Origin: Candidatus Omnitrophota bacterium
GTDB taxonomy: Bacteria; Omnitrophota; Omnitrophia; Omnitrophales; Aquincolibacteriaceae
NCBI GenBank assembly: GCA_016930235.1
Contig: JAFGHI010000007.1
Location: 27,341-91,340, forward strand
DNA length: 64,000 bases
Reading direction: 5' to 3'
Below, in pieces: positions 26,595-47,478 of this stretch. Each line of letters starts with the position of its first letter. The stretch's first letter is position 1. Below the pieces are notes generated by a model that saw nothing but the letters and a program-made list of their open reading frames with translations, was not told where the DNA came from and made no database searches. The position numbers were made by a program, and so were the translations under genes.

Positions 26595-28103
26595 CTATTC
26601 AACGAGAGCGAATGGCGATTCTTCATTCAGGACATTAAAAGACTGTTGCAGCTGAGAGGCATTGGCTGAGCAGAAATATTTACCCCCTGTGATTTCGGCG
26701 ATCCGTGCCATGAGTTCATAGGCTTCGGGTTCAGTAACGTCCCCCGTGTCACAGCCTTCATTAAAATAGATGGTGTGAATTGTGATGTTCTGATTAGCCG
26801 CCTCTTGGGCCATGCGCAGAGCATAATCCGGAGCTAAATTTAATAGCTGCAATTCTCCCGCCGTACATTCATTGTAACTGCCTGGTGGTGCAGTGCGGTC
26901 ACACCAGGCGCAATCATTGACGGTTGGAGGGTCGTTTTCTTTACAAGTTGCCATCCCGTCGGAAAGAAGGATGATCTGGTTAACATGGGCATCCTGTTGG
27001 GATGCTCCCCCCAGAGCAAGCATGTTTATAGAGACTTTAATAGCATGTCCGATATTGGTAAATCCCCAATCTCCCCAGTAGTAATAATCATCAGGTATAT
27101 AATCGTTAGGGTCGTCTTGTCCCAAAGGATCTCCCGGATAGGGCATATCGGGATTCCAAGCCGGATATCCTGTGATTAAGTTGCCCTCTGCATCTTTATA
27201 GTTATTCCAGTTATTCAAAATACTATCAATTTCCGTAATGACATCATTCTTATTTTCATTGGCAGTTACAGTATTGTTGCCGGCGGGTATCCTTTGAGAT
27301 GCGATGGATCCATAAACCACGAGACCGATGCCGTAAAACCGATTAAAAAGGTGATTATTCGGATCTACAATAAAATCATGTGTTGTCTCAAGAACATCCC
27401 ATGCGGGTTGGGGCGGCCCACCCAGACATTCGGCAGCGTCGTACTCGGATTTCGGAGCAAAAATAAAGATACGTTCTGATGGATCGAAAATAGTAGCTCC
27501 CGGGCAGTTTGGAGGTTGCCCCGGATAAGTTTCATTGTCCATCGAATTGGATAAATCTAAAGCGAAAACGATGCGTCGGACAGAGGCCATAGCAATGGCC
27601 GTTCTTTGGAATGTGGCATCACTCGTGAGCCCCAAGACCCTGGCCAGCCGCCAGCTGAAGGGCTCGTTCCTCTGAGCGCCTGACCCTTGCCGGATAGTGA
27701 CTTCGACAGCGTTAACGTTTCCGGGGTCATTCTGGATATTTTTTTCTTGAAAAAAGCCCGGGGTACCATCGTCTAGGTTCGGGGGCGTCCAGAGACCAAA
27801 GCGGACATCCTGTGCGGGGTTCATCTCCACTTCCCCCGAAAAGCGGATGGTATTAAGTTTCATCATATTCTCGATAATCCTGTTGATCTCCTGTTTCTTT
27901 TGTCCCACGGCGTAGTTGTTATTAAATAAAACTTCCGTCATCCGCCTTGCGCCTGAAAGGGCTGCCATGTCCGCGGCGTTTTGAAGCTCAGTGGTAATCA
28001 GATAAGCAAGTCCCAGATCGATGGCAAGTCCGGCCGCTCCGATCAGGACAGGGAGCATGAGCGCGAAAAGGACAATAATGGCGCCTTTTTCTTTCTTCTT
28101 CAT
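26595..28103 (-). CDS. TadG-like Flp-pilus pseudopilin with von Willebrand factor A domain
   Basis: Start chosen at MKKKEKGAIIVLFALMLPVLIGAAGLAIDLG, a TadE/TadG N-terminal prepilin-like helix. A vWA MIDAS motif (VFALDLSNSMD) follows. The track ORF extends to 28154. Confidence 0.6.
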   Translation of the reverse strand: MKKKEKGAIIVLFALMLPVLIGAAGLAIDLGLAYLITTELQNAADMAALSGARRMTEVLFNNNYAVGQKKQEINRIIENMMKLNTIRFSGEVEMNPAQDVRFGLWTPPNLDDGTPGFFQEKNIQNDPGNVNAVEVTIRQGSGAQRNEPFSWRLARVLGLTSDATFQRTAIAMASVRRIVFALDLSNSMDNETYPGQPPNCPGATIFDPSERIFIFAPKSEYDAAECLGGPPQPAWDVLETTHDFIVDPNNHLFNRFYGIGLVVYGSIASQRIPAGNNTVTANENKNDVITEIDSILNNWNNYKDAEGNLITGYPAWNPDMPYPGDPLGQDDPNDYIPDDYYYWGDWGFTNIGHAIKVSINMLALGGASQQDAHVNQIILLSDGMATCKENDPPTVNDCAWCDRTAPPGSYNECTAGELQLLNLAPDYALRMAQEAANQNITIHTIYFNEGCDTGDVTEPEAYELMARIAEITGGKYFCSANASQLQQSFNVLNEESPFALVE

Positions 28104-28150
28104 CCGACCTTGAATGGTTGCATATCCTTTTTTTATCATAACATTGTACC

Positions 28151-29056
28151 TCAAGGCTCTCTTTTTGCGCCGCCTGCTTTGGCGGTATTCCTTGGCACGA
28201 AAGGATTAAGCGTTGCCGTTGCCGTTGCTGTTGCCGATGCCGTTGCCGTTGCTGTTGCTGTCGCTGTTGCTGCTGCTGTAGGCGTTGGTGTCGGGGTTGG
28301 ACTTCCCTCAGTCGTTGGTGTCTCATGCGGTGTTGGTGTTGGCAAATCCGGCAGAGATGGCATTATGCTGGGCCAGAATGACGGCAGCCATAATGTGGCC
28401 GTCGGTGTATAGTGGGGTGTTGCTGTCGGTGTCCACGTTGACGTTGGTGATCCACCCGGTGTGGGTGATCCACCCGGTGTGGGTGTTTCAGTCGATGTAG
28501 TGGTAGCCGTTGGCGATGCCGTCGGCGATGCCGGAGGCACGCTCGCGGCTGCTGACGGCCCCACAGTGGGTATCTTGGGTGGCGCGTCCGGGATATTCGA
28601 TAATTTTGGCGGTCCCAACGTCACGTAATAAGAAGAAGCACTTGCTTCTAGATCAAGATTGCCAGATAGCCCGGGCAAGAATCCCGCTACCGGGGATTGA
28701 AAGGTCGTATGAACCGTAACGGTAATCGGGTCTTTTCTCAAATCGGTTGGGATCTCCACATCCGCCAAAGGAGTAAAGGTGAGCGGAAACGTGTAAGGTG
28801 CGGAGGTCCCCGCATATTTGACGCTTGCGGCCTGACGAATAGACGTATCCGTCGGCTCCGGAGCTATAGCGGCTTCACGAACCGTTTCCCGGGCAATGCG
28901 GTATGCCGACACCCATTGATAGAATGCCCGTCCGAATTCGATGATCCCAAAAATAAGCATGAGAAAAAGGGCAAGAAGAAGTGCCGTTTCTACGATTGTC
29001 TGGCCTCGATTTCTACTGAGCCATCGTTCCGTTTTTTTTGAAAATATTTTTTCCAT
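28151..29056 (-). CDS. TadE-like pseudopilin with long C-terminal Pro/Thr/Ala-rich low-complexity tract
   Basis: The TadE signature RGQTIVETALLLALFLMLIFGIIEFGRAF follows the start chosen at MEKIFSKK (29056). The C-terminal ~150 aa are PT-rich (PTPGGSPTPGGSPT, PTPTPTAAATATATATATASATATATAT). Confidence 0.6.
   Translation of the reverse strand: MEKIFSKKTERWLSRNRGQTIVETALLLALFLMLIFGIIEFGRAFYQWVSAYRIARETVREAAIAPEPTDTSIRQAASVKYAGTSAPYTFPLTFTPLADVEIPTDLRKDPITVTVHTTFQSPVAGFLPGLSGNLDLEASASSYYVTLGPPKLSNIPDAPPKIPTVGPSAAASVPPASPTASPTATTTSTETPTPGGSPTPGGSPTSTWTPTATPHYTPTATLWLPSFWPSIMPSLPDLPTPTPHETPTTEGSPTPTPTPTAAATATATATATASATATATATLNPFVPRNTAKAGGAKREP
28190..28520. repeat. Low-complexity/short tandem repeat DNA encoding the Pro/Thr/Ala-rich tract of the pseudopilin
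   Basis: GTTGCCGTTGCYGTTGCC-type 6-nt periodic repeats lie at 28200-28300. A 20-nt direct repeat GTGATCCACCCGGTGTGGGT occurs twice at ~28448-28490. These produce spurious ORFs in other frames. Confidence 0.7.
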
Positions 29057-29075
29057 TTTTACCCTCTTTTTTTCT

Positions 29076-29615
29076 TTAGGTTCGTCCGCACGTCCATACT
29101 CCGCTTTCATTCCATTGGCAGCGCTGACTGTAAGCATAGGTTGTTACCGATACATATAATGTCGGGTCAATCCCCAGTAAGTTTTCCAATAACCCGCCGA
29201 GAAAATATTCGGGCTTGTGACGGATTCTTGTCATGAAAATAATAGCACCTTGAATATTCGGCGGATCGTCATTCAAGTTAATATGAAAATCATTCATATC
29301 GAGAAAATAGTGCGATAGGATGAAAGGTAGCGGAGATTCCGCCCAGTGCGGGATCCCTGAATCGGCAAGGACACGTCGGGCCCGATTTGCTCCCATTTGG
29401 GGCATCTCCGCAGTCGGGAGTGTTGATTCTGCGCCAATTCGCGTTCCTTCTCTTGCGGCTGCAACCATACGGTGATAAGTATAAATCATATTGCTAATGT
29501 CAATTGCGCCAAGGACCAATAATAACAGGATAGGCAGAATAAGCGCAAACTCAACGAGTGCTTGTCCGCGACTGTCCATTTTCGGCTTTAATTTCATTCT
29601 AGCGTCCTTCATCAT
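29076..29615 (-). CDS. TadE-like pseudopilin (first gene of the minus-strand pseudopilin operon)
   Basis: It contains RGQALVEFALILPILLLLVLGAIDISNMIYTYHRM. In-frame alternative starts lie at 29597 and 29579. It lies divergent from the GT39/PA14 gene across a 336-bp AT-rich region. Confidence 0.6.
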   Translation of the reverse strand: MMKDARMKLKPKMDSRGQALVEFALILPILLLLVLGAIDISNMIYTYHRMVAAAREGTRIGAESTLPTAEMPQMGANRARRVLADSGIPHWAESPLPFILSHYFLDMNDFHINLNDDPPNIQGAIIFMTRIRHKPEYFLGGLLENLLGIDPTLYVSVTTYAYSQRCQWNESGVWTCGRT

Positions 29616-29951
29616 TGGCGATTAAAACGACATATTTTCCTACTATTAGAAAGATACCATAAATATCTATCGAAAAGAAGACTTTGTATCATCATTTTCG
29701 TTGCATAATCTAATAAGATAGAGCATGATTGATCAAAACTATCAAAGATTTCATTGAAAAAGGGCGATCTTTTGTGGTATTTTCAAAAAGTCATGTACGT
29801 AATAATAGAAGATGGCCATTATTTTAAGTCCGCCGCCTCTGAGTATAAAAGCCTTGGCAATCGCAGGTTTTTTGAATATGTGCCGATAGAATTCAGCAGT
29901 GAATGATTGGGAACAAGGAACATCGCAGTCCTATCGTTTTTATAAAATAGC

Positions 29952-31943
29952 TTGGAGACTATGAACCTTTCCATGTCTTTTCGCAAGATTAATGAAACTC
30001 TCCAAAGAGCCTTTTCCCGCATCAATTGGCCGATGGTGATTATTCTATCACTCGGGGCCCTGTTGCGCCTTCTTTTTTTGGACTTGAAGCCGCCCCATTC
30101 GGATGAGGGGGTGGACGGGTCTTTTGCCAATCAAATTGCCTCCGCCGGCTTCTTTGAATATGACCCCAAGAATTTTCACGGGCCTTTGCATTATTACCTG
30201 CTTTTTTTCTTCCGTCTTTTCCTGGGGGAATCTCTCGGGTCTTTAAGAATGTCTTCAGCCCTCTTTGGGGTCGCCTCGATTTTTATTGTTCTGCGTTTGG
30301 CTCCCTTTATTGGAAGGCGTGCGGCCTACCTGGGCGGTCTTCTTTTTGCCGTTTCACCGGGCCTTGTCTTTTTCTCAAGGAGCGGTATTCACGAATCGGG
30401 ATTTTTATTTTTCTCTCTCCTGGCTTTTTACGGGTATTTCCGGTTGCGTCAATTAAAAGATAAACCGGCCTTATGGGGGGTGGGCTTGGGAGCTGCCGGA
30501 ATGATTCTAATGAAAGAAGTGTACATCATCCATCTCTTCTGTTTTTTCTGTGCTTTTCTCGCAATGTTTTTTTGGGGGAAAATATCGCCTACAAAGCAAA
30601 ACGTTCGGGCCGGTTTAAAATTCAACGGACGGGATATCCTTGTCGTGAGTCTCACTTCTTTTTTTCTGATCGTACTTTTTTACTCCGCTTTTTTCCTTCA
30701 CTGGAAAGGAATTATCGGCATTTTTCAGAGTTTCTTCGAATGGACAAAGACCGGAGTTGAGGGAAAAGGCCATGGGAAGCCGTTTGTTTATTTTTTCCGG
30801 CTTTTTTGGGAATACGAATGGCTGAGTCTGATCGGGCTCGTGCTCGTTTTCCGTGTCTTCTGGCCGGTCCCAAGACCCGTTCGTTTCCTGGGTTTTTATG
30901 GCCTATTTATTTTTTTAGCCTATAGCCTGATCCCTTACAAGACCCCTTGGTGTATCATGCAAATGATTTGGCCCCCGCTTGTCATTTTAGCCTATGTTGT
31001 TTCCGAGATCTCTCACCATTACCGAAAGATTGGCTGGTTTGCAGTGCTGTCAGTGTTCTTGATCGGCTCCCTGGAAACGGCGAAAGCGGTCCAGCTGAAC
31101 TTTGTTGATCCGTCAAACCCGAAAGAACCCTACAACTATGTTCAGACGATGCGGCCGATTATGGATGTGCATGCCCGGATACGGGACATGATTCAAAAGG
31201 ATCCAAGAATCAAATACGTCCCGGTTGTTGTCATGATGGAAAACAGCTGGCCTGTCCCTTGGCTTTTCTCCTTTTTTACGAATGCTGGTTACTATGGATC
31301 AGCGATGAAAGGGAGGCGTGATGCCGCCATCCTCTTTTGTGACTCTGCGGAACGCGGGCCTTTGGAAGTGGTACTTAAGGAAAAGTATTTTTACGAACAA
31401 ATATTATTTCGGGAATTTTACGGCGGCGAGCTTCGCATCTATTACCAATATGATTTATTCAAGGATTTCCTGGAAGATGAACTGCCGGTTTTTGAGCCCC
31501 TTGAAATCCCGCTGCCCGGGCCGGGAGAAGGATATATCCAGAGGATTTATGATAATGCCGAGTGGCAGGGGAAGCCGGTATTTGAGCGGAATGTCTTACG
31601 CATCCAGCAATCCTGGGATAACCGGGACCGTCCCTGGCCTGCGCCTTTCGGGATGATTTTTGAAAGCGAAATTTATGTCCCCGAAGAAGGGGAGTATGAG
31701 TTTTTCCTGGCGAGTGATGACGGGAGCGATCTGGAAATAGCGAAGGAGAAAGTCGTTGATAATTTGGGTGCGCATCCTGAGCGGATTGTCTCCGGGGAAA
31801 AGTTTCTGAAGAAGGGATGGCATCCGCTTAAGATCCGTTACAATGATATCGGCGGTGGCGGTATGATCCGCTATTGGTGGAAACCGCCCGGAAAAAAGGA
31901 AGAAGATCTCCCGGTCGAGTATACCCGGGTTCGAGAGGTCTAA
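29952..31943 (+). CDS. GT-C membrane glycosyltransferase (GT39/PMT_2-like) fused to a C-terminal PA14 domain
   Basis: N-terminal polytopic domain with an extracytoplasmic HSDEGVDG (DE) motif. The C-terminus (FESEIYVPEEGEYEFFLASDDGSDLEIAKEKVVDN...GWHPLKIRYNDIGGGGMIRYWWKPPG) matches the PA14 beta-sandwich pattern. Confidence 0.55.
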   Translation: METMNLSMSFRKINETLQRAFSRINWPMVIILSLGALLRLLFLDLKPPHSDEGVDGSFANQIASAGFFEYDPKNFHGPLHYYLLFFFRLFLGESLGSLRMSSALFGVASIFIVLRLAPFIGRRAAYLGGLLFAVSPGLVFFSRSGIHESGFLFFSLLAFYGYFRLRQLKDKPALWGVGLGAAGMILMKEVYIIHLFCFFCAFLAMFFWGKISPTKQNVRAGLKFNGRDILVVSLTSFFLIVLFYSAFFLHWKGIIGIFQSFFEWTKTGVEGKGHGKPFVYFFRLFWEYEWLSLIGLVLVFRVFWPVPRPVRFLGFYGLFIFLAYSLIPYKTPWCIMQMIWPPLVILAYVVSEISHHYRKIGWFAVLSVFLIGSLETAKAVQLNFVDPSNPKEPYNYVQTMRPIMDVHARIRDMIQKDPRIKYVPVVVMMENSWPVPWLFSFFTNAGYYGSAMKGRRDAAILFCDSAERGPLEVVLKEKYFYEQILFREFYGGELRIYYQYDLFKDFLEDELPVFEPLEIPLPGPGEGYIQRIYDNAEWQGKPVFERNVLRIQQSWDNRDRPWPAPFGMIFESEIYVPEEGEYEFFLASDDGSDLEIAKEKVVDNLGAHPERIVSGEKFLKKGWHPLKIRYNDIGGGGMIRYWWKPPGKKEEDLPVEYTRVREV

Positions 31944-31950
31944 AAATCTT

Positions 31951-33714
31951 ATGGGCATTGTTGTTTTCTTTTTAGTGTTTACGGCGGTTTCAACGACTCT
32001 GGCTGTCCTCCTTGCTTCGGTCATGGGTTATCTGGCTGTTTGGATTGTTTGGGTTTCTTTCTTGGCCGGAATGGCGGTCGGATTTTACGGTTATTCGTCA
32101 TCAAAATCGTTATCTTTATCGCTTCGGCCGGTTTCCTTTTTCGATGGGTTCATGCTTGTTGCCTTTACCGTTTTTTGCCTGCGCCATTTCCTCTGGGTTT
32201 ACTATTACCGTGACGGAGGGATGCGGATTTTAGATCAATATAATTTTAGTGATATGCCTTTGCATCTGACCAATGTTGCTTATTTTGTCCGGGGGACCGA
32301 ATTTTGGCCGGACAATCCTATCTTTGCAAGCCTTAAGATGCATTATCCTTTCGGTGTCGATTTCTTTACGGCCATGTGGGTCAAGATCGGGGTGCCGGTC
32401 GACAGGGCGATGCAGCTTGTCGGTTTGGGCGGAGGCCTTCTTGTCGGGATTGCACTTTTTATTTGGGGCCGGGCATTTGCGTTGGCCGCCTTCCTTTTTT
32501 CAGGCGCTCTTCATGGGTTTCAGATCTTTTTGAATATACCTCTGACTGATTATGTGACCGAGCTGCCGTGGAAAAATTTGGCCCTGACGCTCTTGATTCC
32601 TCAGAGGGGTTTCCTTTTCGGGTTCTCGGCGGGACTTTTATTGTTATGGAGCTGGCGGCGGCGTTTTTTGACTCAAGACAAACCACTTCCAGGATTTGTC
32701 GAAATCTGTCTCTGGGGGCTGATGCCCCTATTTCATTTTCATACTTTTCTTTTTCTGACCTACATATATTTGATTTGGTTTTTAGTTTCCGGAAAATGGA
32801 CCCGTGAAAACTTGGGGATTGCCTTGGGGGTATCCATCCCGGCCTTGATCGAATCTTTTGTCTTAACGGACGGCTTTCGTTTAGCGTCCCTCGTGTGGTG
32901 GAAGCCCGGGTGGTTGATCGAAGGCCGGCCCCTTTATTTTTTTATCGCTAATTTTGGTTTGTGGATGCCTCTTCTTTTTCTGGCCCTTGTTTTTGCGTAC
33001 AGAAAAAGACGGTCCCCAAAACCTGAAAGTGACGGAAAATTACCCGCCTCTTGTTTCTGGCATCATCTCTGGCCGGCCCTTTTGTTATGGGCTGCGCTCT
33101 TTTTTGTCATGTTGATGCCGTGGGATTGGGATAATATGAAGCTGATGGTCTGGTGTTATTTACTGATCTTGCCGGCGGTCGACAGTTTAGTGATTCAAAA
33201 AATTCCGAAAGGCTGGCGCTTTCTCGTTTTCTTTTTCCTTTTCTTTTCCGGTTTTGCGGTCGTGGTGAGTTCCGTCGGCCGGGAACAGAAAGGTTCTGAA
33301 GTTATTCGTCTGGAGGAACTGGACGAAGTTTGCACCATCGCACGGAAAATGAATCCTGGAGATACAGTGTTGATTTACCCAACCTTTAATCATCCGATCT
33401 TGCTTTGCGGGTATAAAGTGGTTGCAGGTTACGGCGGTCATACTTGGAGTCATGGGCTTCCCTCCGCAGAGATCGAAAATAAGATCCGCCGGATTTACCT
33501 TGGAGAAAAGGATTGGAAGGGAATTCTTCGGGAATTTGGACCACGCTATCTTTTCTGGGGACCCTATGAGCGCTGGGCCTATTCTGAGTCTACGCGCCCC
33601 TGGGAGGATGAGGCGACGGCGACGCTCATCGCCCGAGGCAAGTGGGGGACAATTTATGATTTGTCGAAGGCGTATACATTGCAGGATGACCAGGAAAATC
33701 TTACACCCCGTTAA
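31951..33714 (+). CDS. Large polytopic membrane protein, paralog family member B
   Basis: 587 aa with ~14 TM helices. Its C-terminal domain (VLIYPTFNHPILLCGYKVVAGYGGHTWSHGLPSAE...RRIYLGEKDWKGILREFGPRYLF) is homologous to the C-termini of the 11019 and 35593 proteins. Confidence 0.4.
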   Translation: MGIVVFFLVFTAVSTTLAVLLASVMGYLAVWIVWVSFLAGMAVGFYGYSSSKSLSLSLRPVSFFDGFMLVAFTVFCLRHFLWVYYYRDGGMRILDQYNFSDMPLHLTNVAYFVRGTEFWPDNPIFASLKMHYPFGVDFFTAMWVKIGVPVDRAMQLVGLGGGLLVGIALFIWGRAFALAAFLFSGALHGFQIFLNIPLTDYVTELPWKNLALTLLIPQRGFLFGFSAGLLLLWSWRRRFLTQDKPLPGFVEICLWGLMPLFHFHTFLFLTYIYLIWFLVSGKWTRENLGIALGVSIPALIESFVLTDGFRLASLVWWKPGWLIEGRPLYFFIANFGLWMPLLFLALVFAYRKRRSPKPESDGKLPASCFWHHLWPALLLWAALFFVMLMPWDWDNMKLMVWCYLLILPAVDSLVIQKIPKGWRFLVFFFLFFSGFAVVVSSVGREQKGSEVIRLEELDEVCTIARKMNPGDTVLIYPTFNHPILLCGYKVVAGYGGHTWSHGLPSAEIENKIRRIYLGEKDWKGILREFGPRYLFWGPYERWAYSESTRPWEDEATATLIARGKWGTIYDLSKAYTLQDDQENLTPR

Positions 33715-33717
33715 TTC

Positions 33718-34836
33718 TTAAAAAGCCCACTGGCCTGTCACGAATCTCAATAGGAAAAATCCATAGAGCATCCCCGACAGCATCACAAGAAGAGTGTGGA
33801 GCATGCGGTTGCGGACGAGGACCGCCAACGCGATGAAGATCGGGAAGATTGACAGACTGTAACGCGGGATACTGAGCCAATAAGAAGTGGATGTGATGAC
33901 GAGCCATGAAGTTATTGCGAAGAATCCGTAGGAGATCCGCAGCCGAAGAAGTGCCCATAAACATAAAAGAAGTGAACCAAGGGCAAAGATCAATTCTGTG
34001 ATTGAGACGGTCACGAGTTCGCTGGGAGACCGCCATTGAAGCGATTCGATGGCGTGAACCAATCCTTTCCAAGGGAAATAGATAGTTTTTCCCCATTGCG
34101 CTTTCGAGATTTCAAGGAAGGCAAAAGGGGATTGAAAGTAGTAATAATTGATCCAGAGATAACTTAGCACTCCCAAAGGAATGAGGAAGAGAAGAAATAT
34201 TTTTTTATCGATTTTTTTCCACTGCCAGTTTCTTTGGGTAAAATATTCGATCAGGATGGCAATCGCAAGACAGAACCCCGTGATCCTTGTCGCCGTGGCG
34301 AGGACTCCGAAGAGTACGCAAACTGCCCATTCATTCCTCCGGGCGTGGTAGAAACACCCCAGGGTAAACAGGATAAAGAGGCTTTCGGTATAACCGGCGT
34401 GAAGAAAATAAGCGCTCGGAAAGACCGAGAGATAAAGAACGGTCCTTAAGGATATTTCTTCCGGATAATCCATCCTTGCGAGGCGGTAAAAATAGATGAC
34501 AACTCCAACGTACGCGGCATTCGAAATAAGAAGCGAGGAGAAAAGATGATGATGGGTGAAGAAGGCCGCGAAATTGATCAGGATAGGATAAAGCGGAAAA
34601 AAGACAATCGGGATTTTACTGCCTTCGGTCGAATAACCCTCGCGGGCGATCTTTAAATAATGAACTGTGTCCCAACGGTTCCAGATCTCCAGCCACGATG
34701 ACGGGAAATGGTTTTTTGTCGCGATGTAGGCGGCGGCAGCAAAAAGGAAAGTGCCTAGGGTCATGATGACGGCCAGCAGGGCAAGCTGCACCGAAGGTTT
34801 TTCCCACGAGATGATGGTTTTCTTAGAGTTTTTCAT
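33718..34836 (-). CDS. PIG-V-like (GT76-type) polyprenol-phosphate-mannose-dependent mannosyltransferase, membrane protein
   Basis: WNRWDTVHYLKIAREGYSTEG...IVFFPLYPILI matches the conserved WDxxHYLxIAxxGY...FFPLYP signature of the PIG-V/Gpi18 family. ~9 TM helices. It overlaps the upstream GT2 by 4 nt. Confidence 0.5.
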   Translation of the reverse strand: MKNSKKTIISWEKPSVQLALLAVIMTLGTFLFAAAAYIATKNHFPSSWLEIWNRWDTVHYLKIAREGYSTEGSKIPIVFFPLYPILINFAAFFTHHHLFSSLLISNAAYVGVVIYFYRLARMDYPEEISLRTVLYLSVFPSAYFLHAGYTESLFILFTLGCFYHARRNEWAVCVLFGVLATATRITGFCLAIAILIEYFTQRNWQWKKIDKKIFLLFLIPLGVLSYLWINYYYFQSPFAFLEISKAQWGKTIYFPWKGLVHAIESLQWRSPSELVTVSITELIFALGSLLLCLWALLRLRISYGFFAITSWLVITSTSYWLSIPRYSLSIFPIFIALAVLVRNRMLHTLLVMLSGMLYGFFLLRFVTGQWAF

Positions 34837-35555: not shown

Positions 35556-35592
35556 CGGTTTCCCGCGAAGAGAATTCGTTGAATCTGTCATT

Positions 35593-37581: not shown

Positions 37582-37666
37582 GAATTCAAGAAATCTCCCA
37601 ATGGTAAGGGTATTGTATGATCAATGGCGCGAAAATCCAATGAAGATGTCTTGGGCAGTCAAAAGA

Positions 37667-38722: not shown

Positions 38723-39101
38723 GATTTCCTAACCCCGCTTGCTAGAATCGTCTGCGGCTTATTCAGGTCATTCTGAGAAGTCCTGTAAGGACGGCGAAGA
38801 TTCTAAAGAAAACCTTCGCTATGCTCAGGATGACGCCAAGTTGCACACAAAATGAAGTGCTAGCAGTATAGCTTCTCTTGTCTAGATATCAAATTAAAGA
38901 CCTGAAGAGAAGTCTTCTTACTATCAATACAACCTTTAAAAACCCTCTTCGCCGTCCCAGGAATTATCAAGGTTTAAAGGCATTTCTTCATCTAAAGAAT
39001 ACTAGCACTTTACCGATAATTGTATCAATCAGTCACGAAGATCGCAATAAGTGTTTCATTTGCGGGTAGTTAGGGACATTGTGAATCTTTCGAGGGCAAA
39101 T

Positions 39102-39130
39102 TTGACAAACAACTAACTTCAGGTTATCTT
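39102..39130 (+). promoter_or_regulatory. Candidate promoter upstream of flp (TTGACA with a weak -10)
   Basis: TTGACA at 39102-39107. A TATCTT lies 17 nt downstream. Two direct repeats AGTAAGTCGGAAnTAAG at 39134-39150 and 39170-39186 follow, before the AAGGAGGG RBS. Confidence 0.3.
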
Positions 39131-39234
39131 TTTAGTAAGTCGGAAGTAACCGAGTTTTTTGAAAACGAAAGTAAGTCGGAATAAGTATTCATGGAATCAA
39201 AGATACGTGAATTCCGAATGAAGGAGGGAAAACC

Positions 39235-39402
39235 ATGGCGAAACTATTAGCGGCGCTCCAGGTATGGAAAAGCCAAAAGGGTCAGGGGATGGTGGAATAT
39301 GCGTTGATCCTTTCTCTTATAGCAGTCGTAGTGATATTGATTTTGACTACTATGGGGAAACAGGTCACCGCGATCTTTACGACGATTTCCGCTGCGTTAT
39401 AA
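39235..39402 (+). CDS. flp: Flp/Fap family type IVb pilin (55 aa; missed by the ORF track)
   Basis: Translation is MAKLLAALQVWKSQKGQGMVEYALILSLIAVVVILILTTMGKQVTAIFTTISAAL. It has the canonical Flp G/xxxxEY processing motif and a hydrophobic helix. An AAGGAGGG RBS lies 6 nt upstream. It sits at the head of the cpaB-tadC operon. Track ORF 39264..39554 is the wrong frame. Confidence 0.8.
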   Translation: MAKLLAALQVWKSQKGQGMVEYALILSLIAVVVILILTTMGKQVTAIFTTISAAL

Positions 39403-39456
39403 CGGCAGCTTCAAAAACCCTGATGAAACCTTTCAGGGCGAGTAGATTTACACAAA

Positions 39457-39502
39457 GAGATGGGAAGATTGCAGTTTGTGGAATCTTCCCATCTCTTTTT
39501 TT
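39457..39502 (+). terminator. Rho-independent terminator after flp
   Basis: GAGATGGGAAGATT-loop-AATCTTCCCATCTC (a 14-bp perfect stem) is followed by TTTTTTT. Confidence 0.8.
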
Positions 39503-39770: not shown

Positions 39771-40574
39771 ATGGCGCGAATCAAAAACTCATTTGTTCTT
39801 ATGCTGGCCATCGTAACGGGGGTGGCCGCGTTTATCATCAGCATCAATTTTATCAAGCCTCAAAAAGAAGCGGTCGTGACCGATACGGGTACGATGGTTG
39901 TGACGGCAGCCAATGATATCCGGATCGGGACAAAGATTTTGAAAAAGGATATTGATCTACTCCCGGCCCCATCGGGAGTCAATGCGAAAATTCTTTTTAC
40001 GGAAATGAATCAGGTGATAGGCAAACTGAGCCGCTCGAATATTTCGAAAGGGACCGCCATCCGCACGCTGGATCTTTATGAAGAAGGAGAAAGTCTAGCC
40101 AGCCTTATTCCGCCGGGATATCGCGCCATGAGTATTCCCGTGACGATGTCCGGAAGCTTGAGTAAGCTGGTTTATGCCGGTAACCGTGTGGATGTGCTTC
40201 TCACTTACCGGCGCGGGATGGGGGACTTCCAAACCATCACACTGGTTAAGAATGCGAAAGTTATTGATGTGACCCAATCCGGGCAAAGCAGCGGAGGGGA
40301 AGTCCAGATGTCGATCACGCTGGCGGTAACACCCGAAGGGGCGAAGACCCTGGCGTTTGCGATGGAAAAGGGGACTTTAAAAGTTGCCGTTTATTCAATG
40401 GAAGATGTCGAAAGGGAAGAGCAGGAAAGGTTTTTTACCTTGAAGGAACTCTTCTTTCAGGAAGAGGAAAAAACCTATCGGGAACTGATCCCTACGCAGG
40501 ATGGTGTTGAGACGATCCGCGGGCTGAGAAAAGAAAAGCAAAAGTTCGATAGCGAAAGAATGGGTACGTCATAA
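39771..40574 (+). CDS. cpaB: Flp pilus assembly protein CpaB/RcpC
   Basis: N-terminal TM anchor, then SAF/RcpC-like domains. It lies between flp and the secretin gene. Confidence 0.7.
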   Translation: MARIKNSFVLMLAIVTGVAAFIISINFIKPQKEAVVTDTGTMVVTAANDIRIGTKILKKDIDLLPAPSGVNAKILFTEMNQVIGKLSRSNISKGTAIRTLDLYEEGESLASLIPPGYRAMSIPVTMSGSLSKLVYAGNRVDVLLTYRRGMGDFQTITLVKNAKVIDVTQSGQSSGGEVQMSITLAVTPEGAKTLAFAMEKGTLKVAVYSMEDVEREEQERFFTLKELFFQEEEKTYRELIPTQDGVETIRGLRKEKQKFDSERMGTS

Positions 40575-40590
40575 GAAGGAGGCGGTGGTT

Positions 40591-42453
40591 ATGTCGGATT
40601 CAAGAATCCTAAGCTTGAGAAGAACGTTCTTGAATCGTTTTTTTGTTTTCAGCCTAGCGGTTGTTTTTGGGATGGGGATGATGCCGGGAGTCGTGGTTGA
40701 TAATGGCCTTTCCTCCGCTTATGCAGCGGGGGCCTCTTCGGGTTCATCGACGCTCCGTGCGCCTCAATCCGTTACGGTCATAGAATCCAGGCAGGATGCA
40801 GCAGGTCCATCGGGGTTATCGCAACATAACATTCTTCCCGAGACATGGGTTGAGGAAATTAAAATGGATGAAGGCCAGCTTGTTGTTGTTGTCGGGCGGT
40901 CCCATCTTTTACGGTTCAAAAAAAGTATCGGACGGGTCTCGGTTTCCGAGCCTGAAATCCTGGATTTCCTGATGCTTTCGCCGACGGAACTATTATTGAA
41001 CGCAAGGGCCCAAGGGGCCGTGAATTTGATTGTCTGGGATACCGAGAACCGCGTCTCCAACATTGATGTTAATGTGATTAATGACCCGACCTTGCTCAAG
41101 AGGCTTCTCCAGAAGATAGACCCCAAGGGGGATTTTGAGGTCTATCCTTCGCGCGATGTCTTTGTCGTGGAGGGGGAAACATCCAGCGTCTTAAAATCCA
41201 AAGAGATTGAAGATGCCGCCAATGCCTTTGCCGAGGGGAGTATCAGTCTAGTCCGCGTGAAAGAGACCAAGCAAATCCTTCTACAAATCCGATTCATTCA
41301 GGTAGACCAGTCCCAAGATTTTGATTTCGGACTTGATTTCGAACACGCCGATCTCTTCCATGATTATATTGTAACTCAGCGTTTTCTCCCGGGCGGAACG
41401 CATGCTCAAACGGGCGGTGATTCCAATTTTACCTTTACCAATCCTCGAACGACTTCGCAGCGTGATCAGTTTGATGTGAATGATGATGATGTGTATTCAT
41501 TTCATTTGTTTGATAACAATACCCTTATGAATGGCTTCATTAAAGCGATTGAGGAAAAGGGGATTGGGAAGACCATTGCGCGTCCTAATCTGGTCGTCAA
41601 AGACGGTGAAGAGGCCAGTTTTCTTGTCGGGGGTGAGGCCGCCGTTGTCGTTTCAACAAATAATGATATCAGTGTCGAGTTTAAGGAATATGGGACACGG
41701 CTGACCTTTAAAGCCGAGGTCCTCTATGATGACCGGATCCGCCTGGTGGTCGAGCCGGAAGTGAGCGCGCTTGATTTTACAAATGGTGTGACGGTCAACG
41801 ATATCGTCATTCCGTCTTTTACGAGCACCAAGGTCAAAACGATGGTTGAACTGGGAGAAAACCAGACCTTTATGATCGGCGGGCTTCTCCGTCAGGAGAT
41901 GCAGGAAACAGAGACCGGTGTTCCCTTTTTACGGCGAATTCCATTTTTTGGAAGGCTTTTTGAGAGTACGGACAAAACTTTTTCGGATACAGAACTCCTT
42001 GTCTTAGTGACGCCGAGATTTATCAACCCTGAGGCGAAGTCTGTGGAAACAAGTGATGATGAGTATGATATGCTTTCGCTGGCGACAAAATTACAGGCTC
42101 ATCCGGTCAAGGATGAACAGGCGGAGGCGATTGAAAGATATATCCAGGAGAACAAGCGTTATCTTGAAAAACCAATCAAGATAGAGACCGAAGTCAAGTC
42201 CAAGAAGGAACTTAAGAAAGCGAAGAAAGATCAAATAACGAAAGAGAAAAAGGAAAAAGAAGAAGTCGTCACGAAGTCGAGCAGCTTGAAGGAATTAGAG
42301 GCGGCTTTGAACTCGATATCGAGGCCGGTTGATGTTAAGAAAGAACCGAAAACGATCGCTAGGAAGCCTGCTCAGGCCGAAACCGCTAAAAAGGACCAAG
42401 CCAGCGAGCAGAGAAACAAAGGGTATTTATATCGTTCGAGAATGGAACCATAA
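40591..42453 (+). CDS. cpaC: Flp pilus secretin CpaC/RcpA with Lys/Glu-rich C-terminal extension
   Basis: The secretin domain (IGGLLRQEMQETETGVPFLRRIPFFGRLFES...LLVLVTPRFI) is preceded by BON/N-domains. The C-terminal ~120 aa are low-complexity KKEKKEKEE-rich. ATG 40591 lies 8 nt after AAGGAGG; the track starts at GTG 40585. Confidence 0.75.
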   Translation: MSDSRILSLRRTFLNRFFVFSLAVVFGMGMMPGVVVDNGLSSAYAAGASSGSSTLRAPQSVTVIESRQDAAGPSGLSQHNILPETWVEEIKMDEGQLVVVVGRSHLLRFKKSIGRVSVSEPEILDFLMLSPTELLLNARAQGAVNLIVWDTENRVSNIDVNVINDPTLLKRLLQKIDPKGDFEVYPSRDVFVVEGETSSVLKSKEIEDAANAFAEGSISLVRVKETKQILLQIRFIQVDQSQDFDFGLDFEHADLFHDYIVTQRFLPGGTHAQTGGDSNFTFTNPRTTSQRDQFDVNDDDVYSFHLFDNNTLMNGFIKAIEEKGIGKTIARPNLVVKDGEEASFLVGGEAAVVVSTNNDISVEFKEYGTRLTFKAEVLYDDRIRLVVEPEVSALDFTNGVTVNDIVIPSFTSTKVKTMVELGENQTFMIGGLLRQEMQETETGVPFLRRIPFFGRLFESTDKTFSDTELLVLVTPRFINPEAKSVETSDDEYDMLSLATKLQAHPVKDEQAEAIERYIQENKRYLEKPIKIETEVKSKKELKKAKKDQITKEKKEKEEVVTKSSSLKELEAALNSISRPVDVKKEPKTIARKPAQAETAKKDQASEQRNKGYLYRSRMEP

Positions 42454-42475
42454 TTATTACAAGGGCTAAAATCCT

Positions 42476-43771
42476 ATGAGTCATGAAAACCGGATAGTTT
42501 TTATCTCCAGCGAAGATACGACAATCGAGAGTTTTAAAAAGATAATCGCGGGGAAATTGTCTCAGTATCGCGGCAGAAAAATTGGTGTCCACACCTTTAG
42601 ATTTATCCCCAGCCTCGATGAAGTGGTGACCAACTATGCGCCCTCGCTTATTGTCGTCAATATCGAACCGGATCAGATGGAAGCGAAAATGGAATTCATC
42701 AGTCAGTTGGGCCGCTTGGCCAATCGCATCCCCGTGGTTGTTTCTGCGCCGGCTTTTGATACCGAACTGATGATGACCTGTGTCAAACGCGGGGTGAAGG
42801 ATTTCCTCAATACCCCCTTTAAAGAAGATGAGATCAAAGAAATGTTCCTGAGGATTCTGGAGGATGCCGGTGCTGTTTCAGCGAAAGGGGTCGGGCTGGC
42901 GGAGACGTTCACTTTTTTCAGCTATAAAGGCGGTATTGGCAATACTTTCTTGGCTTGTAATACAGCGGTCGCGTTGAGCCGTATCACTGGCAAGCGGGTC
43001 CTTCTGTGGGACCTGGTTCTTCAGAATGGGGACGTCCCCTTTTTCTTTGATGTTGAGCCGAATGTGAATTTGTCGGATCTGATGGAAAATCTTCCCGATA
43101 TCGATGAATCCTACTTGAGGGGGACCCTTCCGATCCATTCAAGCGGCGTGGCGATTTTATCGGGTCCCAAAAGGCCGGAAGAAGCCGAGGGGATCCGTTA
43201 TGACCAGATTCAAGGGCTCCGGCAGGTTTTGAATCAGTATTACGATTATATTGTCATTGACGGCGGACATGTCCTGACCGATCAGATTATCGGCGCCCTG
43301 GATATTTCCAAGCACATCCTGCTGACAACCGATTTGCATCTGCCGGTCTTGAAAAATACTCTGCGCTGTGTTGAAGTGTTTGAGCGTCTGGGATATGTGG
43401 AAGGAAAGTTCAAGATTATCCTTAACCGGTATAATTCCAAATATGAAACGTTCGATCTCGATCGCGCCCGGGAGATTCTCCGCTATCCCATCGCGTTTGC
43501 TTTTACCAATGATTATGTGACGGTCTCCCGGTCCTTGAATACCGGGATCCCCATCGCCGAATTGGAAGAAAACAGCCAGCTCGCAAAACAATTTGAATCC
43601 CTGGCAAATCTTCTGATCACTGATTTTAAAGCCGATGTTGAAAAATCATTCTCCATTTTGGACCGCTTTAAGAGCCTTTTCCCGTCCAGCAAGAAGGCTA
43701 AAAAACGAGAGGATGAGAAAGTAGCCCTTTCCAAGGCGGCGGAAAGAGTCAAACACGATGGCGCTGAGTGA
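42476..43771 (+). CDS. cpaE: Flp pilus assembly ATPase-like protein CpaE/TadZ
   Basis: An N-terminal receiver-like domain is followed by a MinD/ParA-type domain with the deviant Walker [19 protein letters not shown]. Confidence 0.65.
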
Positions 43772-45080
43772 TCGTTTAAGAAAGCGGCGGGGGGAAGACG
43801 GATTACCCGAAGAGAAGTTCTCGCCTCATGAGGCCAAACGCCAGGAATACCTCCAGGAAGTCAAGATCAAGATGCACCGGAGTTTGATCGACAGGCTTGA
43901 CCTTGATGCCTTGATGAGTTTGGATCCCAAGGAAGCCCGCAAGCAGGTCAGCAGCCTTGTCCGTGTCCTTTTTGATGAGGAAAAGGTTGCCGTCACTTCC
44001 CGGGAACGCGACGATGTCATCCAGGAGGTCGTGGATGAAACCTTCGGGCTGGGGCCGCTGGAACCTCTTTTAGCGGACGGGACCATTGATGAAATCCTGG
44101 TCAATAACGCTCACCAAGTGTACGTTGAGAGGTTCGGAAAATTGTCGGTCACCAATACCCGTTTTAAGGATGATGACCATTTAAGGCATGTGATTAACCG
44201 GATTGTTGCACGGATCGGGCGGCGGATAGATGAATCAAGTCCGATGGTGGACGCCCGCTTGGCTGACGGATCACGTGTGAACGCCATCATCCCGCCTCTT
44301 GCGATTGACGGCCCGGTTGTCTCGATTCGCCGGTTCCGGAGAATTCCCTTTAGGCCTGAAGACCTTGTAGCAAGAAAATCGACAACGCTTGAGATTGTCA
44401 AGCTGCTTGATATGGCGGTGAAGTCAAAATTAAATATCCTGATCTCCGGCGGGACAGGATCCGGTAAGACAACGCTCCTCAACATCCTATCGTCTTTCAT
44501 TCCCTCGGATGAACGCATTATTACGATCGAAGATGCCGCGGAATTGCAGCTTCAGCAAGGGCATGTCGTTCGGTTGGAGACCCGTCCTCCCAATATTGAA
44601 GGGAAGGGTGAAATCACTCAACGGGATTTGGTCAGGAATTCGCTTCGTATGAGACCCGATCGCATTATCGTTGGGGAAGTTCGTGGCCAAGAGGCCCTGG
44701 ACATGCTCCAAGCGATGAATACAGGCCATGAAGGATCCATTACCACCATCCATTCCAATAGCGCGCGTGATGCTATCAGCCGTCTTGAGACCATGGTGTT
44801 GATGGCCAATTCCAATTTGACAAGTCATGCCATTACCCGTCAAATCGGCGCAGCCTTTCACCTAATTATTCAAATTGCCCGTTACCCGGACGGCGTCCGT
44901 CGAATGGAATCTTTATCTGAAGTGACCGGGATGGAAGGGAATGTCATCAGCTTACAGGATGTCTTTTCGTTTGAGCAGAAAGGACTTGATTCGGACGGCA
45001 AAGTGATCGGCGAGTTTAAATTTCATAATATCCGTCCGAAGTTCCTGGATTCCGCGATCAAAAAAATTCGCATGAGTTGA
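43758..45080 (+). CDS. cpaF: Flp pilus assembly ATPase CpaF/TadA (VirB11-family secretion ATPase)
   Basis: Walker [27 protein letters not shown]. Asp/His boxes [12 protein letters not shown] and TTIHSNSA. Confidence 0.85.
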
Positions 45081-45119
45081 TTTTGAGAAACGCCAAATTG
45101 GACAAAGGTAAAAAATTCC

Positions 45120-46079
45120 ATGCAGATTGTCATAGGGATCTTAGTTGCGGCCGCGGCCGCGTGTTTTGTTTACCTTCTACTCGATCTTTTAGGGGGCGGG
45201 GGTTTCCAAGAGAGTCAAACCATTGAAAAACGCCTGAATAGGCTTCTTCTGCCGACATCACCCTCCATTACACGAAATATCCAGTTCAGCGCTATCTTTA
45301 CCATTGATAAAGTGATCCGAAGGCAGAGATTTGCCAGGAAGTTGTATGATCTTTTAATCTTGACGGGTTGGTCGATGCCTTTAAGTGTTTTTGTGCTGGT
45401 TGATCTCTTGTGGGCCTTTCTGGTTTATTTCTTTGTCCAGCTGGTGACGCATAATCCCTTGGTGGCATTGATTTCGGCTTTAGCGGCCGGTTTTCTGCCC
45501 TATTGGGGCTTGGTGGTGAACAGGGGGCGTTATATCGAAAAGTTTTCTGTTCTTTTCCCGGATGCCCTCTTAATGATGAAAAATTCGCTGAAAGCCGGGC
45601 AGGGTATCCAAGCAGCCCTGCAAATGGTCGCGCAGGAAGGACCTAGGCCGATTTCGGATGAATTTGCCCGGGTGATTCGCGAGATCGAATTGGGAAGTCA
45701 TCTGACGGAAGCCCTGACTTCTCTTTCAGATAGAATCCCGACGCGTGATGTCCGTATGTTTGTTTTGGGGATCTTTATTCAGCAGGAAATCGGAGGGAAT
45801 CTCGCGGAACTGTTTCAAAATCTGGAAAAGACAATACGGGACCGCATTTCCTTATCCCGGGAATTAAGGGGGCTAACGGCCCAAGGAAAGGTTTCAGGAT
45901 TGGTTCTTATTTTATTGCCGATTGCGGTCGGAGCAATGCTTTGGTTGATAAACCCTGAATATTTCAAACCTCTTTTTGAAACGGAGATGGGAAAGAAGAT
46001 GTTTTACGGAACAGTTGGGATGCAAATTCTTGGGAGTCTTATCATTAGGAAGATGACGACGGTTTCGATCAGTACGTAA
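45120..46079 (+). CDS. tadB: Flp pilus assembly inner-membrane protein TadB (T2SS F-domain)
   Basis: T2SSF-type domain topology. It sits directly after cpaF. Confidence 0.7.
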   Translation: MQIVIGILVAAAAACFVYLLLDLLGGGGFQESQTIEKRLNRLLLPTSPSITRNIQFSAIFTIDKVIRRQRFARKLYDLLILTGWSMPLSVFVLVDLLWAFLVYFFVQLVTHNPLVALISALAAGFLPYWGLVVNRGRYIEKFSVLFPDALLMMKNSLKAGQGIQAALQMVAQEGPRPISDEFARVIREIELGSHLTEALTSLSDRIPTRDVRMFVLGIFIQQEIGGNLAELFQNLEKTIRDRISLSRELRGLTAQGKVSGLVLILLPIAVGAMLWLINPEYFKPLFETEMGKKMFYGTVGMQILGSLIIRKMTTVSIST

Positions 46080-46118
46080 TCAGATTCTAAAAACTATTTT
46101 TTGAGGAGTGTCGATAGA

Positions 46119-46955
46119 ATGTTTGCGGCGGCTTTATTGTTTTCCCTTTCTATGGGGCTTTTAGTCTGGTATTTTGCGACCTCTCAGGTGGAAAACAAAA
46201 TTATTAAACGGCGGACTGAAAAATTTTCGACCGGGGAGACGCCGGAAGAAATCAGGAATGCCGAACTCCTTAAGGATGAGTTTGCGTATCGCAAAGGCCA
46301 TTTCCGCCGGTATTTCGAATTTTCGGTCCATCCTTCGTTTAAGCAACTCGTGATGTTTTCTATCATCTGGGTGGGCTTGGCGGTGTTTGTCTTTGTCAAA
46401 CTTGAGATTGCGGTGTTAGCTAAAATCGTTTTACTTCTATTTGCAGGGATGATCTTGATGCGCGTGTTATCGAAGGCTGCCGTCAAGGCAAGAAGTGAGG
46501 AGCTCAAAAAGGAACTGCCGGGGGCCTTAGAGCTTGTGGTGATTTGTATGGAGTCCGGATTGAGTATCAATGCGGCCTTCCTGAGGGTTTCCAATGAACT
46601 GCACAATTCCCCTTTGGGGTTGGAATTACGTCAGACATTTAATGAGATTGAAGCGGGGGCGACTTTAGAGGATGCTTTGCGGGATTTTGCAAAGAGGACG
46701 GGAATGGCGGAGGTGAATGCTATTGCTGTTTCGATTGTTCAGGCCCAGAAGATGGGGACTCCGATCAGCGGAACGTTGAGGGTCCAGGTTGATTCCTTAA
46801 GGGAGAAGATGAAGATGCAATTGAAGGAACAAATTATGAAAATTCCGATTAAGATCCTTTTCCCCCTCATTTTCTTCATTTTTCCAGTTCTTTTTATCTT
46901 AATTCTTGGCCCCGCCGTTATTTCTGTCTTTGAACGTTTTGTCGGAAAAGTGTGA
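46119..46955 (+). CDS. tadC: Flp pilus assembly inner-membrane protein TadC (T2SS F-domain)
   Basis: Second T2SSF-domain protein. ATG 46119 lies 9 nt after GAGGAG; the track starts at TTG 46101. Confidence 0.65.
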   Translation: MFAAALLFSLSMGLLVWYFATSQVENKIIKRRTEKFSTGETPEEIRNAELLKDEFAYRKGHFRRYFEFSVHPSFKQLVMFSIIWVGLAVFVFVKLEIAVLAKIVLLLFAGMILMRVLSKAAVKARSEELKKELPGALELVVICMESGLSINAAFLRVSNELHNSPLGLELRQTFNEIEAGATLEDALRDFAKRTGMAEVNAIAVSIVQAQKMGTPISGTLRVQVDSLREKMKMQLKEQIMKIPIKILFPLIFFIFPVLFILILGPAVISVFERFVGKV

Positions 46956-46986
46956 GGCAGTCAATCGTTAGGGGTTACCGTCGCAG

Positions 46987-47337
46987 ATGACCAAAAGATT
47001 CGTTCTCTATAATACATCGAACAATCAAGAGGTGGCGGAAGTCGAAAGCGCTTCGACTTTTTCAAGGAGGCTTTTCGGACTGCTATTTGAAAAATCAAAG
47101 GAGAGCGCTCCCGCCCTTTGGCTTGTGCCCTGTAAGGCCGTCCATACTTGCGGCATGCGGTGGCCGATCGATCTTATCTTTTTGAGCAAGACATTTCAGG
47201 TTGTCGAGATCTGTAAAGGTGTGAAACCTTTTTCATGGCCGGTTGTCTGCTGGAGGGCTCATTCAGTCGTTGAGATATCGAGGGATCATTGGGACAAGGA
47301 TGCTGTCCGGGTAGGGGATCAGCTCGTTTTCCGATGA
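46987..47337 (+). CDS. DUF192 (UPF0127/COG1430) domain protein
   Basis: FSRRLFGLLF...LWLVPCKAVHTCGMRWPIDLIFL...VV matches the DUF192 pattern. It lies immediately downstream of tadC. Confidence 0.45.
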   Translation: MTKRFVLYNTSNNQEVAEVESASTFSRRLFGLLFEKSKESAPALWLVPCKAVHTCGMRWPIDLIFLSKTFQVVEICKGVKPFSWPVVCWRAHSVVEISRDHWDKDAVRVGDQLVFR

Positions 47338-47478
47338 TGAAGTTCCGGGAAGGAAGTTGCTTGAAATTCTCGCAGAAAAGCTATAGCATGATGCGTGAAT
47401 TGCCGATAGAAAAGGGGGTTTGACGGTCTTAAGGAATTCAAGCCCGAACCGGATGGTTTCGCTAGAGAAAGGGTGACT

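Follow-up and report, generated by a model that had tools for sequence, protein, structure and literature searches.

A likely single type IVc (Tad/Flp) pilus system encoded in two arms in an Omnitrophota genome, with its prepilin peptidase most likely supplied in trans

The Omnitrophota, a group of uncultured bacteria that are for the most part ultra-small, may live as predators or parasites, and Tad pili are a main genomic argument that they attach to hosts. A 64,000-nucleotide stretch of the genome of a Candidatus Omnitrophota bacterium (GenBank assembly GCA_016930235.1, contig JAFGHI010000007.1, positions 27,341 to 91,340 of the forward strand) carries Tad pilus genes in two groups on opposite strands, with glycosyltransferase genes between the groups, a pilT gene nearby, and no prepilin peptidase gene. 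We refer to this whole stretch as the window and count positions from its first letter. Does the arrangement reflect an unconventional pilus machine, or a familiar one whose genes are laid out in an unusual way? Our analysis supports the second answer. The window likely encodes one type IVc (Tad/Flp) pilus system in two arms, with the glycosyltransferase island, pilT, and an AI-2E family transporter gene as neighbors and with a peptidase acting in trans. This is not a new kind of machine; it is a known system with a somewhat unusual gene order, in a phylum already reported to have Tad pili.

Nonoverlapping open reading frames (ORFs) of at least 80 aa were called over the entire window and scanned against Pfam and NCBIfam. 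These scans recovered all of the genes named in a first-pass annotation of the window, at the positions given there. The first arm lies on the minus strand and comprises three genes, probably an operon, that encode TadG- and TadE-type proteins and would supply the minor and tip pilins.

26595-28154, minus strand: tadG-like gene with a C-terminal vWA-like region (PF13400, E = 7.6e-10, 39 bits against a cutoff of 22.3)
28151-29137, minus strand: tadE2, encoding a TadE-like minor pilin (PF07811, E = 4.7e-12, 46 bits against a cutoff of 22.9)
29076-29615, minus strand: tadE1, encoding a TadE minor pilin with the prepilin motif RG/QALVEF (PF07811, E = 8.9e-17, 61 bits against a cutoff of 22.9)

The second arm, on the plus strand, begins with the major pilin gene and continues through the secretin, ATPase, and platform genes.

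39235-39402, plus strand: flp, encoding a major pilin of 55 aa (PF04964, E = 2.7e-11, 43.5 bits against a cutoff of 32.2)
39454-39502, plus strand: hairpin directly 3' of flp, followed by the U-run UUUUUUU (minimum free energy of -29.4 kcal/mol, z = -7.5 against shuffled sequences)
39771-40574, plus strand: cpaB/rcpC (PF16976, E = 5e-20, with SAF; TIGR03177, 146 bits against a cutoff of 71)
40585-42453, plus strand: cpaC/rcpA secretin gene (PF00263, E = 2.4e-39, 135 bits; PF13629, E = 3.6e-17)
42476-43771, plus strand: cpaE/tadZ-like gene for a ParA/MinD ATPase with an N-terminal receiver-like domain (MinD-type matches, KGGVGR-type P-loop)
43758-45080, plus strand: cpaF/tadA motor ATPase gene (PF00437, E = 1.1e-64; product 100% identical to an Omnitrophica-annotated 'CpaF family protein')
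45120-46079, plus strand: tadB, encoding a T2SSF platform protein (PF00482, E = 1.3e-17, 64 bits against a cutoff of 25)
46101-46955, plus strand: tadC, encoding a T2SSF platform protein (PF00482, E = 6e-19, 69 bits against a cutoff of 25)

The pilins of both arms carry matching leader signals. Flp has the processing motif KG/QGMVEY, in which positions +5 and +6 are Glu and Tyr. TadE2 is modular, with a TadE N-terminal domain that bears the prepilin motif RG/QTIVE and a Pro/Thr/Ala-rich low-complexity tail. Across all six frames of the whole window, Flp, TadE1, and TadE2 provided the only three genuine G/xxxxE(Y/F/T) prepilin motifs with a hydrophobic helix. The start of tadE2 is most likely at 29056, giving 301 aa, and the true start of tadG is likely at 28103, giving 502 aa and matching NCBI protein P0121 (502 aa). 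The vWA region of TadG scored 17.9 bits against PF00092, under the cutoff of 23.8, and this weak VWA match was accompanied by a weak Tad_C match; the region contains a MIDAS-type (DxSxS) motif, DLSNS, and a downstream SDG motif.

Two proteins of the second arm had scores below curated cutoffs. Scores for the CpaE/TadZ-like protein were below threshold for AAA_31 (25.9 against 27), CbiA (24.9 against 25.4), and Response_reg (18.4 against 30.2); the position of its gene between the secretin gene and cpaF and its syntenic orthologues at 52% identity support the assignment. CpaF scored 335 bits against TIGR03819, under the cutoff of 373, but this is a model of another subfamily, one associated with conjugal transfer. 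The hairpin after flp probably acts as an intrinsic terminator or attenuator and would uncouple expression of the pilin from that of the machinery. It agrees with a common pattern of more transcription from the pilin gene than from the machinery genes. No Rfam family matched at the hairpin or upstream of flp, and the idea of a cyclic di-GMP riboswitch or another known RNA element near this gene was rejected.

To place the two arms in context, related loci were collected with CpaF, the TIGR03663 GT-C glycosyltransferase, and pilT as synteny anchors. TadG as query returned only six homologues, being too divergent for a word-based search, and the GT-C and pilT genes were used instead. The nearest CpaF relatives (60-80% identity) were nearly all from Omnitrophota. 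The same two-arm layout was present in at least six related contigs, namely L003/L024 (a single 296-kb contig), L005/L007 (GCA_030698625.1), L008 (GCA_964434115.1), L009, and L018, with a partial version in L017. The left part of the shared order runs from a 2-hydroxyacid dehydrogenase gene, with BolA and glutaredoxin genes in some contigs, through pilT and zero to three variable genes to tadG-tadE2-tadE1 on the minus strand. The right part comprises the GT-C/PA14 gene and a gene of a 587-aa protein family on the plus strand, variable genes, the AI-2E gene on the minus strand, flp-cpaB-cpaC-cpaE-cpaF-tadB-tadC, and genes for a response regulator and a PAS histidine kinase. Beyond these, the shared order extends to an epimerase gene, HPPK, tRNA methyltransferase genes, and an OEP gene.

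In the window the gap between the arms extends from 29615 to 39235 (~9.6 kb, six genes), and across the relatives it measures 6.8-11 kb. Orthologues in the relatives were 75-78% identical to the window proteins for CpaF, 67-72% for PilT, 36-42% for the GT-C enzyme, and 24-34% for TadG, the last found at the same position in L007, L008, L009, L018, and L024. Since the layout is retained among orthologues that have diverged to 24-78% identity, the split is an old and stable feature of the clade and not an accident of the source genome. The first-pass annotation was accurate in describing two arms separated mostly by glycosylation-type genes, the AI-2E transporter gene being the member of the six that is not one. 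Its suggestion that the arrangement is functionally unconventional is not supported. The range that it assigned to the Tad region, 26595-47337, ends with a gene (46987-47337) for a DUF192 protein, which is not a classical Tad component.

One further contig bears on how the two arms belong together. L016 (Ga0209515_10015010, 292-7455) encodes PilT, a metallophosphoesterase, an AI-2E transporter, a response regulator, a histidine kinase, and an epimerase, with neither Tad arm and no island. It resembles an empty site, indicating that Tad genes were gained or lost on both sides of the AI-2E gene. The joint absence of both arms and the island fits the two arms acting as one functional unit.

The tails of the TadE2-type proteins vary among these loci. 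The N-terminal TadE domain is conserved, and the low-complexity tail behind it is hypervariable, being Pro/Thr- or Thr/Ala-rich in the window (28151-29056) and in L007 (8524-9285). The orthologues in L008 (7412-9418) and L009 (7138-9297) have Ser-rich tails of ~500 aa; these Ser-rich versions were missed by gene callers, which called short opposite-strand ORFs instead.

How are the pilins processed? Flp, TadE1, and TadE2 all have G/xxxxE(Y/F/T) leader motifs, and their cleavage would therefore require an A24 aspartyl prepilin peptidase. No ORF of at least 80 aa in the 64-kb window matched Peptidase_A24 (PF01478), and no GxGD[VI]K-type catalytic motif was present in its six frames. The TadV protein of a relative, searched by tblastn and by phmmer --max against all six-frame segments of the window, gave no match (best E = 0.13). 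These three independent tests bear out the absence of a prepilin peptidase recorded in the first-pass annotation, and with all of them negative, a hidden or unconventional peptidase in the window was rejected. A PEMT/ICMT-like membrane methyltransferase encoded at 25081-25695 was considered as a PilD-like N-methylase and dropped; it has only generic PEMT/ICMT matches and is absent from the loci of the relatives. An A24 peptidase was likewise absent from every split-type relative locus examined.

As to the missing peptidase, the comparison with a relative, though not the source genome itself, yielded a result of the type that the first-pass annotation had named as making the arrangement conventional. 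GCA_030698625.1, which has the same split locus with no peptidase, has a further Tad locus of compact form on a different contig (L010, JAUYMS010000035.1), and this locus encodes TadV (PF01478, 169 aa, GGGDVKL motif). Its gene order is tadE, tadG, flp, the TadV gene, cpaB, cpaE, cpaF (product 63% identical to the window CpaF), tadB, tadC, and DUF192, with no secretin gene. An unlinked tadV is also said to have been described for Bifidobacterium breve. In Bdellovibrio bacteriovorus, the Tad genes are dispersed and include no TadV gene, and experiments showed that Flp1 is processed by the type IVa pilus (T4aP) peptidase PilD (bioRxiv 10.64898/2026.07.08.737194). The window system thus most likely depends on a peptidase that is encoded elsewhere in the genome and acts in trans. 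The likeliest candidates would be a TadV from a second Tad locus, like that of GCA_030698625.1, or an enzyme of the PilD type, like that of Bdellovibrio.

Two observations on the second locus of GCA_030698625.1 are recorded here. L010 (5986-13592) has TadV and no secretin, and the split locus of the same genome has a secretin and no peptidase, so the two may complement each other. A giant ORF (4617 aa) is located ~4 kb away from this locus (the region 17938-21353 was noted alongside), which echoes reports of Omnitrophota giant proteins flanked by pilus genes. Two other compact Omnitrophota Tad loci, L011 and L012, were included in the comparison; their large TadE proteins, 525-1171 aa in total, have Cys-rich tails (L011, 1079-4594; L012, 3036-4613).

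Around and between the two arms lie the following genes.

23945-25057, plus strand: pilT/pilU-family ATPase gene (TIGR01420, 369 bits against a cutoff of 319)
29952-31943, plus strand: gene for a TIGR03663 (Agl23-like) GT-C enzyme with a C-terminal PA14 domain (TIGR03663, 136.4 bits against a cutoff of 126.25; PMT_2, E = 8e-10, 39.6 bits against a cutoff of 26.1; PA14, E = 6e-11)
31951-33714, plus strand: gene for an uncharacterized membrane protein of 587 aa with ~11 predicted transmembrane segments (no Pfam or NCBIfam family)
33718-34836, minus strand: gene for a PIG-V/PMT_2-like GT-C enzyme (Pfam)
34833-35666, minus strand: GT2 gene (Pfam)
35593-37581, minus strand: gene for a GT-C-like multi-pass membrane protein of 662 aa, a paralogue of the 587-aa protein
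37667-38722, minus strand: AI-2E family transporter gene, divergent from flp (PF01594, E = 5e-55)
46987-47337, plus strand: gene for a DUF192 protein, directly after tadC (PF02643, E = 2.7e-12)
47473-47856, plus strand: single-domain response regulator gene (Pfam match)
47900-50458, plus strand: PAS histidine kinase gene (Pfam match)

Several of these belong to the general backbone of the region. The AI-2E gene is read as a backbone gene and not a Tad gene because it is kept at the same position in the Tad-less L016. The response regulator and histidine kinase genes that follow the second arm are conserved in L003 and L005 and are also kept in L016; they are backbone genes as well, and a role in Tad regulation is possible. 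The DUF192 gene has a different distribution. It lies directly 3' of tadC in all three compact loci (L010, 13212-13592; L011, 13145-13492; L012, 13099-13440) and is absent after tadC in the closest split-type relatives. A DUF192-tadC association has likewise been reported for Firmicutes tad operons (PMC12786226), and phmmer found no relative of the window protein by sequence in the Protein Data Bank (PDB).

The island between the arms is partly shared and partly particular to the window. The GT-C/PA14 gene is divergent from tadE1, and its orthologues occupy the same position in the relatives. The 587-aa gene always follows the TIGR03663 gene, with orthologues in all of the relatives and in two non-Tad loci, L013 and L014, which are glycan-synthesis clusters carrying the pair at 33-34% identity. 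The next three genes (33718-37581) occur in the window only and are absent from L003, L005, L007, L008, and L009. Homologues of this block at 41-46% identity stand side by side in a Tad-less Desulfobacterota glycan cluster (L002), and the 662-aa protein had a single relative in the genome collection, at 42% identity, in a Desulfobacterota metagenome-assembled genome (MAG). The block looks like an acquired cassette, and its GC content is not distinctive.

Farther upstream, positions 2714-17170 hold envelope-polysaccharide genes, including a PMT-like GT-C gene, an MBOAT gene, and several genes for SGNH-type proteins (AlgX/GDSL) reminiscent of an O-acetylation system of the alginate type. Given that the GT-C/587-aa pair also occurs in Tad-less clusters and that more GT-C, MBOAT, AlgX/GDSL, and GT2 genes lie upstream, we read the island as an envelope-glycan module situated between the arms. 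It would then be a neighbor that has become fixed here within the clade and no dedicated part of the Tad system.

A family of three paralogues in this region, at 22-25% identity to one another, consists of the proteins encoded at 31951-33714, 35593-37581, and 11019-12833 (587, 662, and 604 aa). Each is predicted to cross the membrane ~11-12 times and has a soluble domain at its C terminus. No member passed a Pfam or NCBIfam threshold, the only hint being weak similarity to Dpy19 (E = 1.5e-4), and a profile search against PDB sequences gave chance matches only. Near the right end of the window, an ORF at 61821-62648 on the minus strand encodes an IS200-like Y1 transposase (PF01797, E = 6.5e-10).

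Three other explanations of the locus were weighed against a functional, two-arm Tad system with unrelated neighbors. The absence of a peptidase from 64 kb, the window-specific insertion of three genes into the gap, and the existence of at least one relative without Tad genes at this site (L016) are what a decaying locus might leave behind, one broken by insertions, deprived of its peptidase, and no longer functional. Nevertheless, 11 of 11 Tad ORFs are intact with correct motifs, the layout is kept with intact orthologues in at least six diverged genomes, the insertions fall between operons and interrupt no gene, and a peptidase supplied in trans has precedent in GCA_030698625.1 and in Bdellovibrio. 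We consider the chance that the locus is decaying to be exceedingly small. The pilT gene raises a different issue, namely whether it encodes a dedicated retraction ATPase recruited to the Tad system, which would make a hybrid with separate extension and retraction motors. Its product belongs to the PilT/PilU family by TIGR01420 and has the expected Walker A (GVVSSGKT), Asp box (EDPVE), Walker B (VIVIGEMRD), and GMQT motifs, and the distance between the gene and tadG ranges from 13 bp to 2.6 kb across the window and at least six related contigs. The first-pass annotation was right on both the family and the distance (1.54 kb from the end of pilT to the 3' end of tadG in the window), but the oddity that it implied for the Tad system is not borne out. 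The two genes are convergent, and pilT is tightly packed with housekeeping genes on its own strand, with gaps of 40, 23, and 0 bp among genes for a 2-hydroxyacid dehydrogenase, the PEMT-like methyltransferase, and a metallophosphoesterase. The closest PilT is that of L016 (72% identity), where no Tad genes are present at the site; conversely, no pilT lies within 10 kb of the CpaF gene in the compact loci L010, L011, and L012. A pattern search of the window PilT found no AIRNLIRE-type motif, TIQQLVKD seeming to occupy the equivalent position (judged by eye, with no alignment), which makes the protein a paralogue within the PilT/PilU family, one that is not demonstrably canonical as a PilT. In relatives, a gene for a type IV pilus-type N_methyl prepilin lies ~2 kb upstream of pilT, whereas the window contains no N_methyl prepilin gene, and T4aP are common in Omnitrophota according to PMC10066038. 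Finally, CpaF drives both extension and retraction in Caulobacter (PMC11300603). A recruited retraction motor thus appears very improbable, and the adjacency of pilT and the Tad genes is judged to be best explained by general backbone synteny, with pilT not part of the Tad system. It would be an unrelated backbone gene, probably serving T4aP, and CpaF alone would drive extension and any retraction.

The third explanation assigns the island a function in the locus. Its GT-C/PA14 genes might O-glycosylate the Pro/Thr- or Ser-rich tail of TadE2, or Flp, in the periplasm by means of polyprenyl-phosphate sugars, and the arms and island would then form one super-locus for a glycosylated tip adhesin of the Tad type. 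Protein O-mannosyltransferases, which act on Ser/Thr-rich regions, are found among the GT-C enzymes of the PMT_2 type, and mucin-like tails such as those of TadE2 and its orthologues are typical substrates of O-glycosylation. All split-type relatives have the GT-C/PA14 gene and its 587-aa partner immediately beside tadE1 in divergent orientation, even though identity is only 36-42%; in L011 and L012, both compact, the tails are Cys-rich and no GT-C gene is adjacent; and the island and the Tad arms are missing together in L016. Other observations speak against this reading. The same gene pair is found in the Tad-less clusters L013 and L014; the entire ~40-kb region, housekeeping genes included, is syntenic in the clade, so adjacency is not specific evidence; a single deletion of arm 1 would remove the island whatever its function; and the window holds many other envelope-glycan genes upstream. 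A super-locus of this kind is, in our estimation, unlikely. The more specific proposal, in which the split itself is functional and the GT-C/PA14 enzyme and its 587-aa partner glycosylate the TadE2 tail to produce a glycosylated Tad tip adhesin for attachment to hosts or prey, is quite unlikely. If true, it would represent a dedicated glycosylation module for Tad minor pilins, which has not been described before.

Our preferred reading, one Tad system in two arms with a peptidase in trans and unrelated neighbors, has several points weighing against it. The putative empty site L016 is a single 8-kb metagenome contig and could be a misassembly. The case for an A24 peptidase in the source genome is built on one relative and on precedent. 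A scan for promoter and terminator consensus sequences over 23.8-40 kb performed no better than on shuffled sequence and was not used to define operons. In addition, the island keeps its place between the two arms and borders the gene of a minor pilin whose tail is mucin-like, which leaves room for a functional link.

The locus has consequences for how Tad systems are counted. Models of Tad completeness in MAGs that demand colocalization of all genes or a linked TadV gene would under-call systems such as this one. It also provides two leads for others to follow, modular TadE proteins with hypervariable tails and the recurrent linkage of DUF192 genes to Tad loci; the TadE tail beside the GT-C genes is the main one.

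Compared with the canonical pilA-cpaA-K locus of Caulobacter crescentus and the flp-rcp-tad locus of Aggregatibacter, the window has the same core set: Flp with a G/xxxxEY motif, CpaB/RcpC, CpaC/RcpA, CpaE/TadZ, CpaF/TadA, TadB, TadC, TadE-type proteins, and TadG. A single motor ATPase is common to all of them. The canonical loci are contiguous and have the peptidase gene, cpaA or tadV, beside the pilin gene, whereas in the window the minor pilins are encoded by an operon on the other strand, at a distance of 9.6 kb, and the vicinity has no gene for a peptidase. The window also differs from them in that no TadD/CpaD-type pilotin was recognized within it, a DUF192 gene follows tadC, and one TadE protein has a long low-complexity tail.

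The Tad system of Bdellovibrio bacteriovorus is a closer match in organization, with dispersed genes, no TadV gene in the tad loci, and signaling genes beside tad genes (bioRxiv 10.64898/2026.07.08.737194). TadB and TadC of Omnitrophota group phylogenetically with those of Bdellovibrionales, according to PMC10066038. The two differ in that the Bdellovibrio genes occupy several loci far apart and include a TadZ-TadA fusion and a duplicated rcpA-tadA, whereas the window has only two arms, with under 10 kb between them, and its cpaE and cpaF are individual genes. Use of a trans-acting prepilin peptidase, PilD, is experimental in Bdellovibrio and only inferred in the window.

Within the phylum, Tad and T4aP were already reported to be widespread and were discussed in terms of host attachment by Seymour et al. 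2023 (PMC10066038), who scored presence or absence and the phylogeny of TadB, TadC, and RcpA. The Omnitrophota Tad loci covered there, such as that of Velamenicoccus archaeovorus LiM, represent the same system, with a proposed role in attachment to hosts or prey. In the available part of that paper, we found no mention of the two-arm layout, the GT-C island, the modular TadE tails, or the association with DUF192. The compact Omnitrophota loci L010, L011, and L012 are the nearest comparison. Like the window, they encode a CpaF (60-63% identical to that of the window) among flp, tadE, a large TadE gene, cpaB, cpaE, cpaF, tadB, and tadC, followed by DUF192. All of their genes lie in one block on one strand, in contrast to the two arms of the window. 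L010 has TadV and no secretin, and L011 and L012 have a secretin and no peptidase within 10 kb. The tails of the large TadE proteins separate the two types as well, being Cys-rich in compact loci, Pro/Thr-rich in the window and L007, and Ser-rich in L008 and L009.

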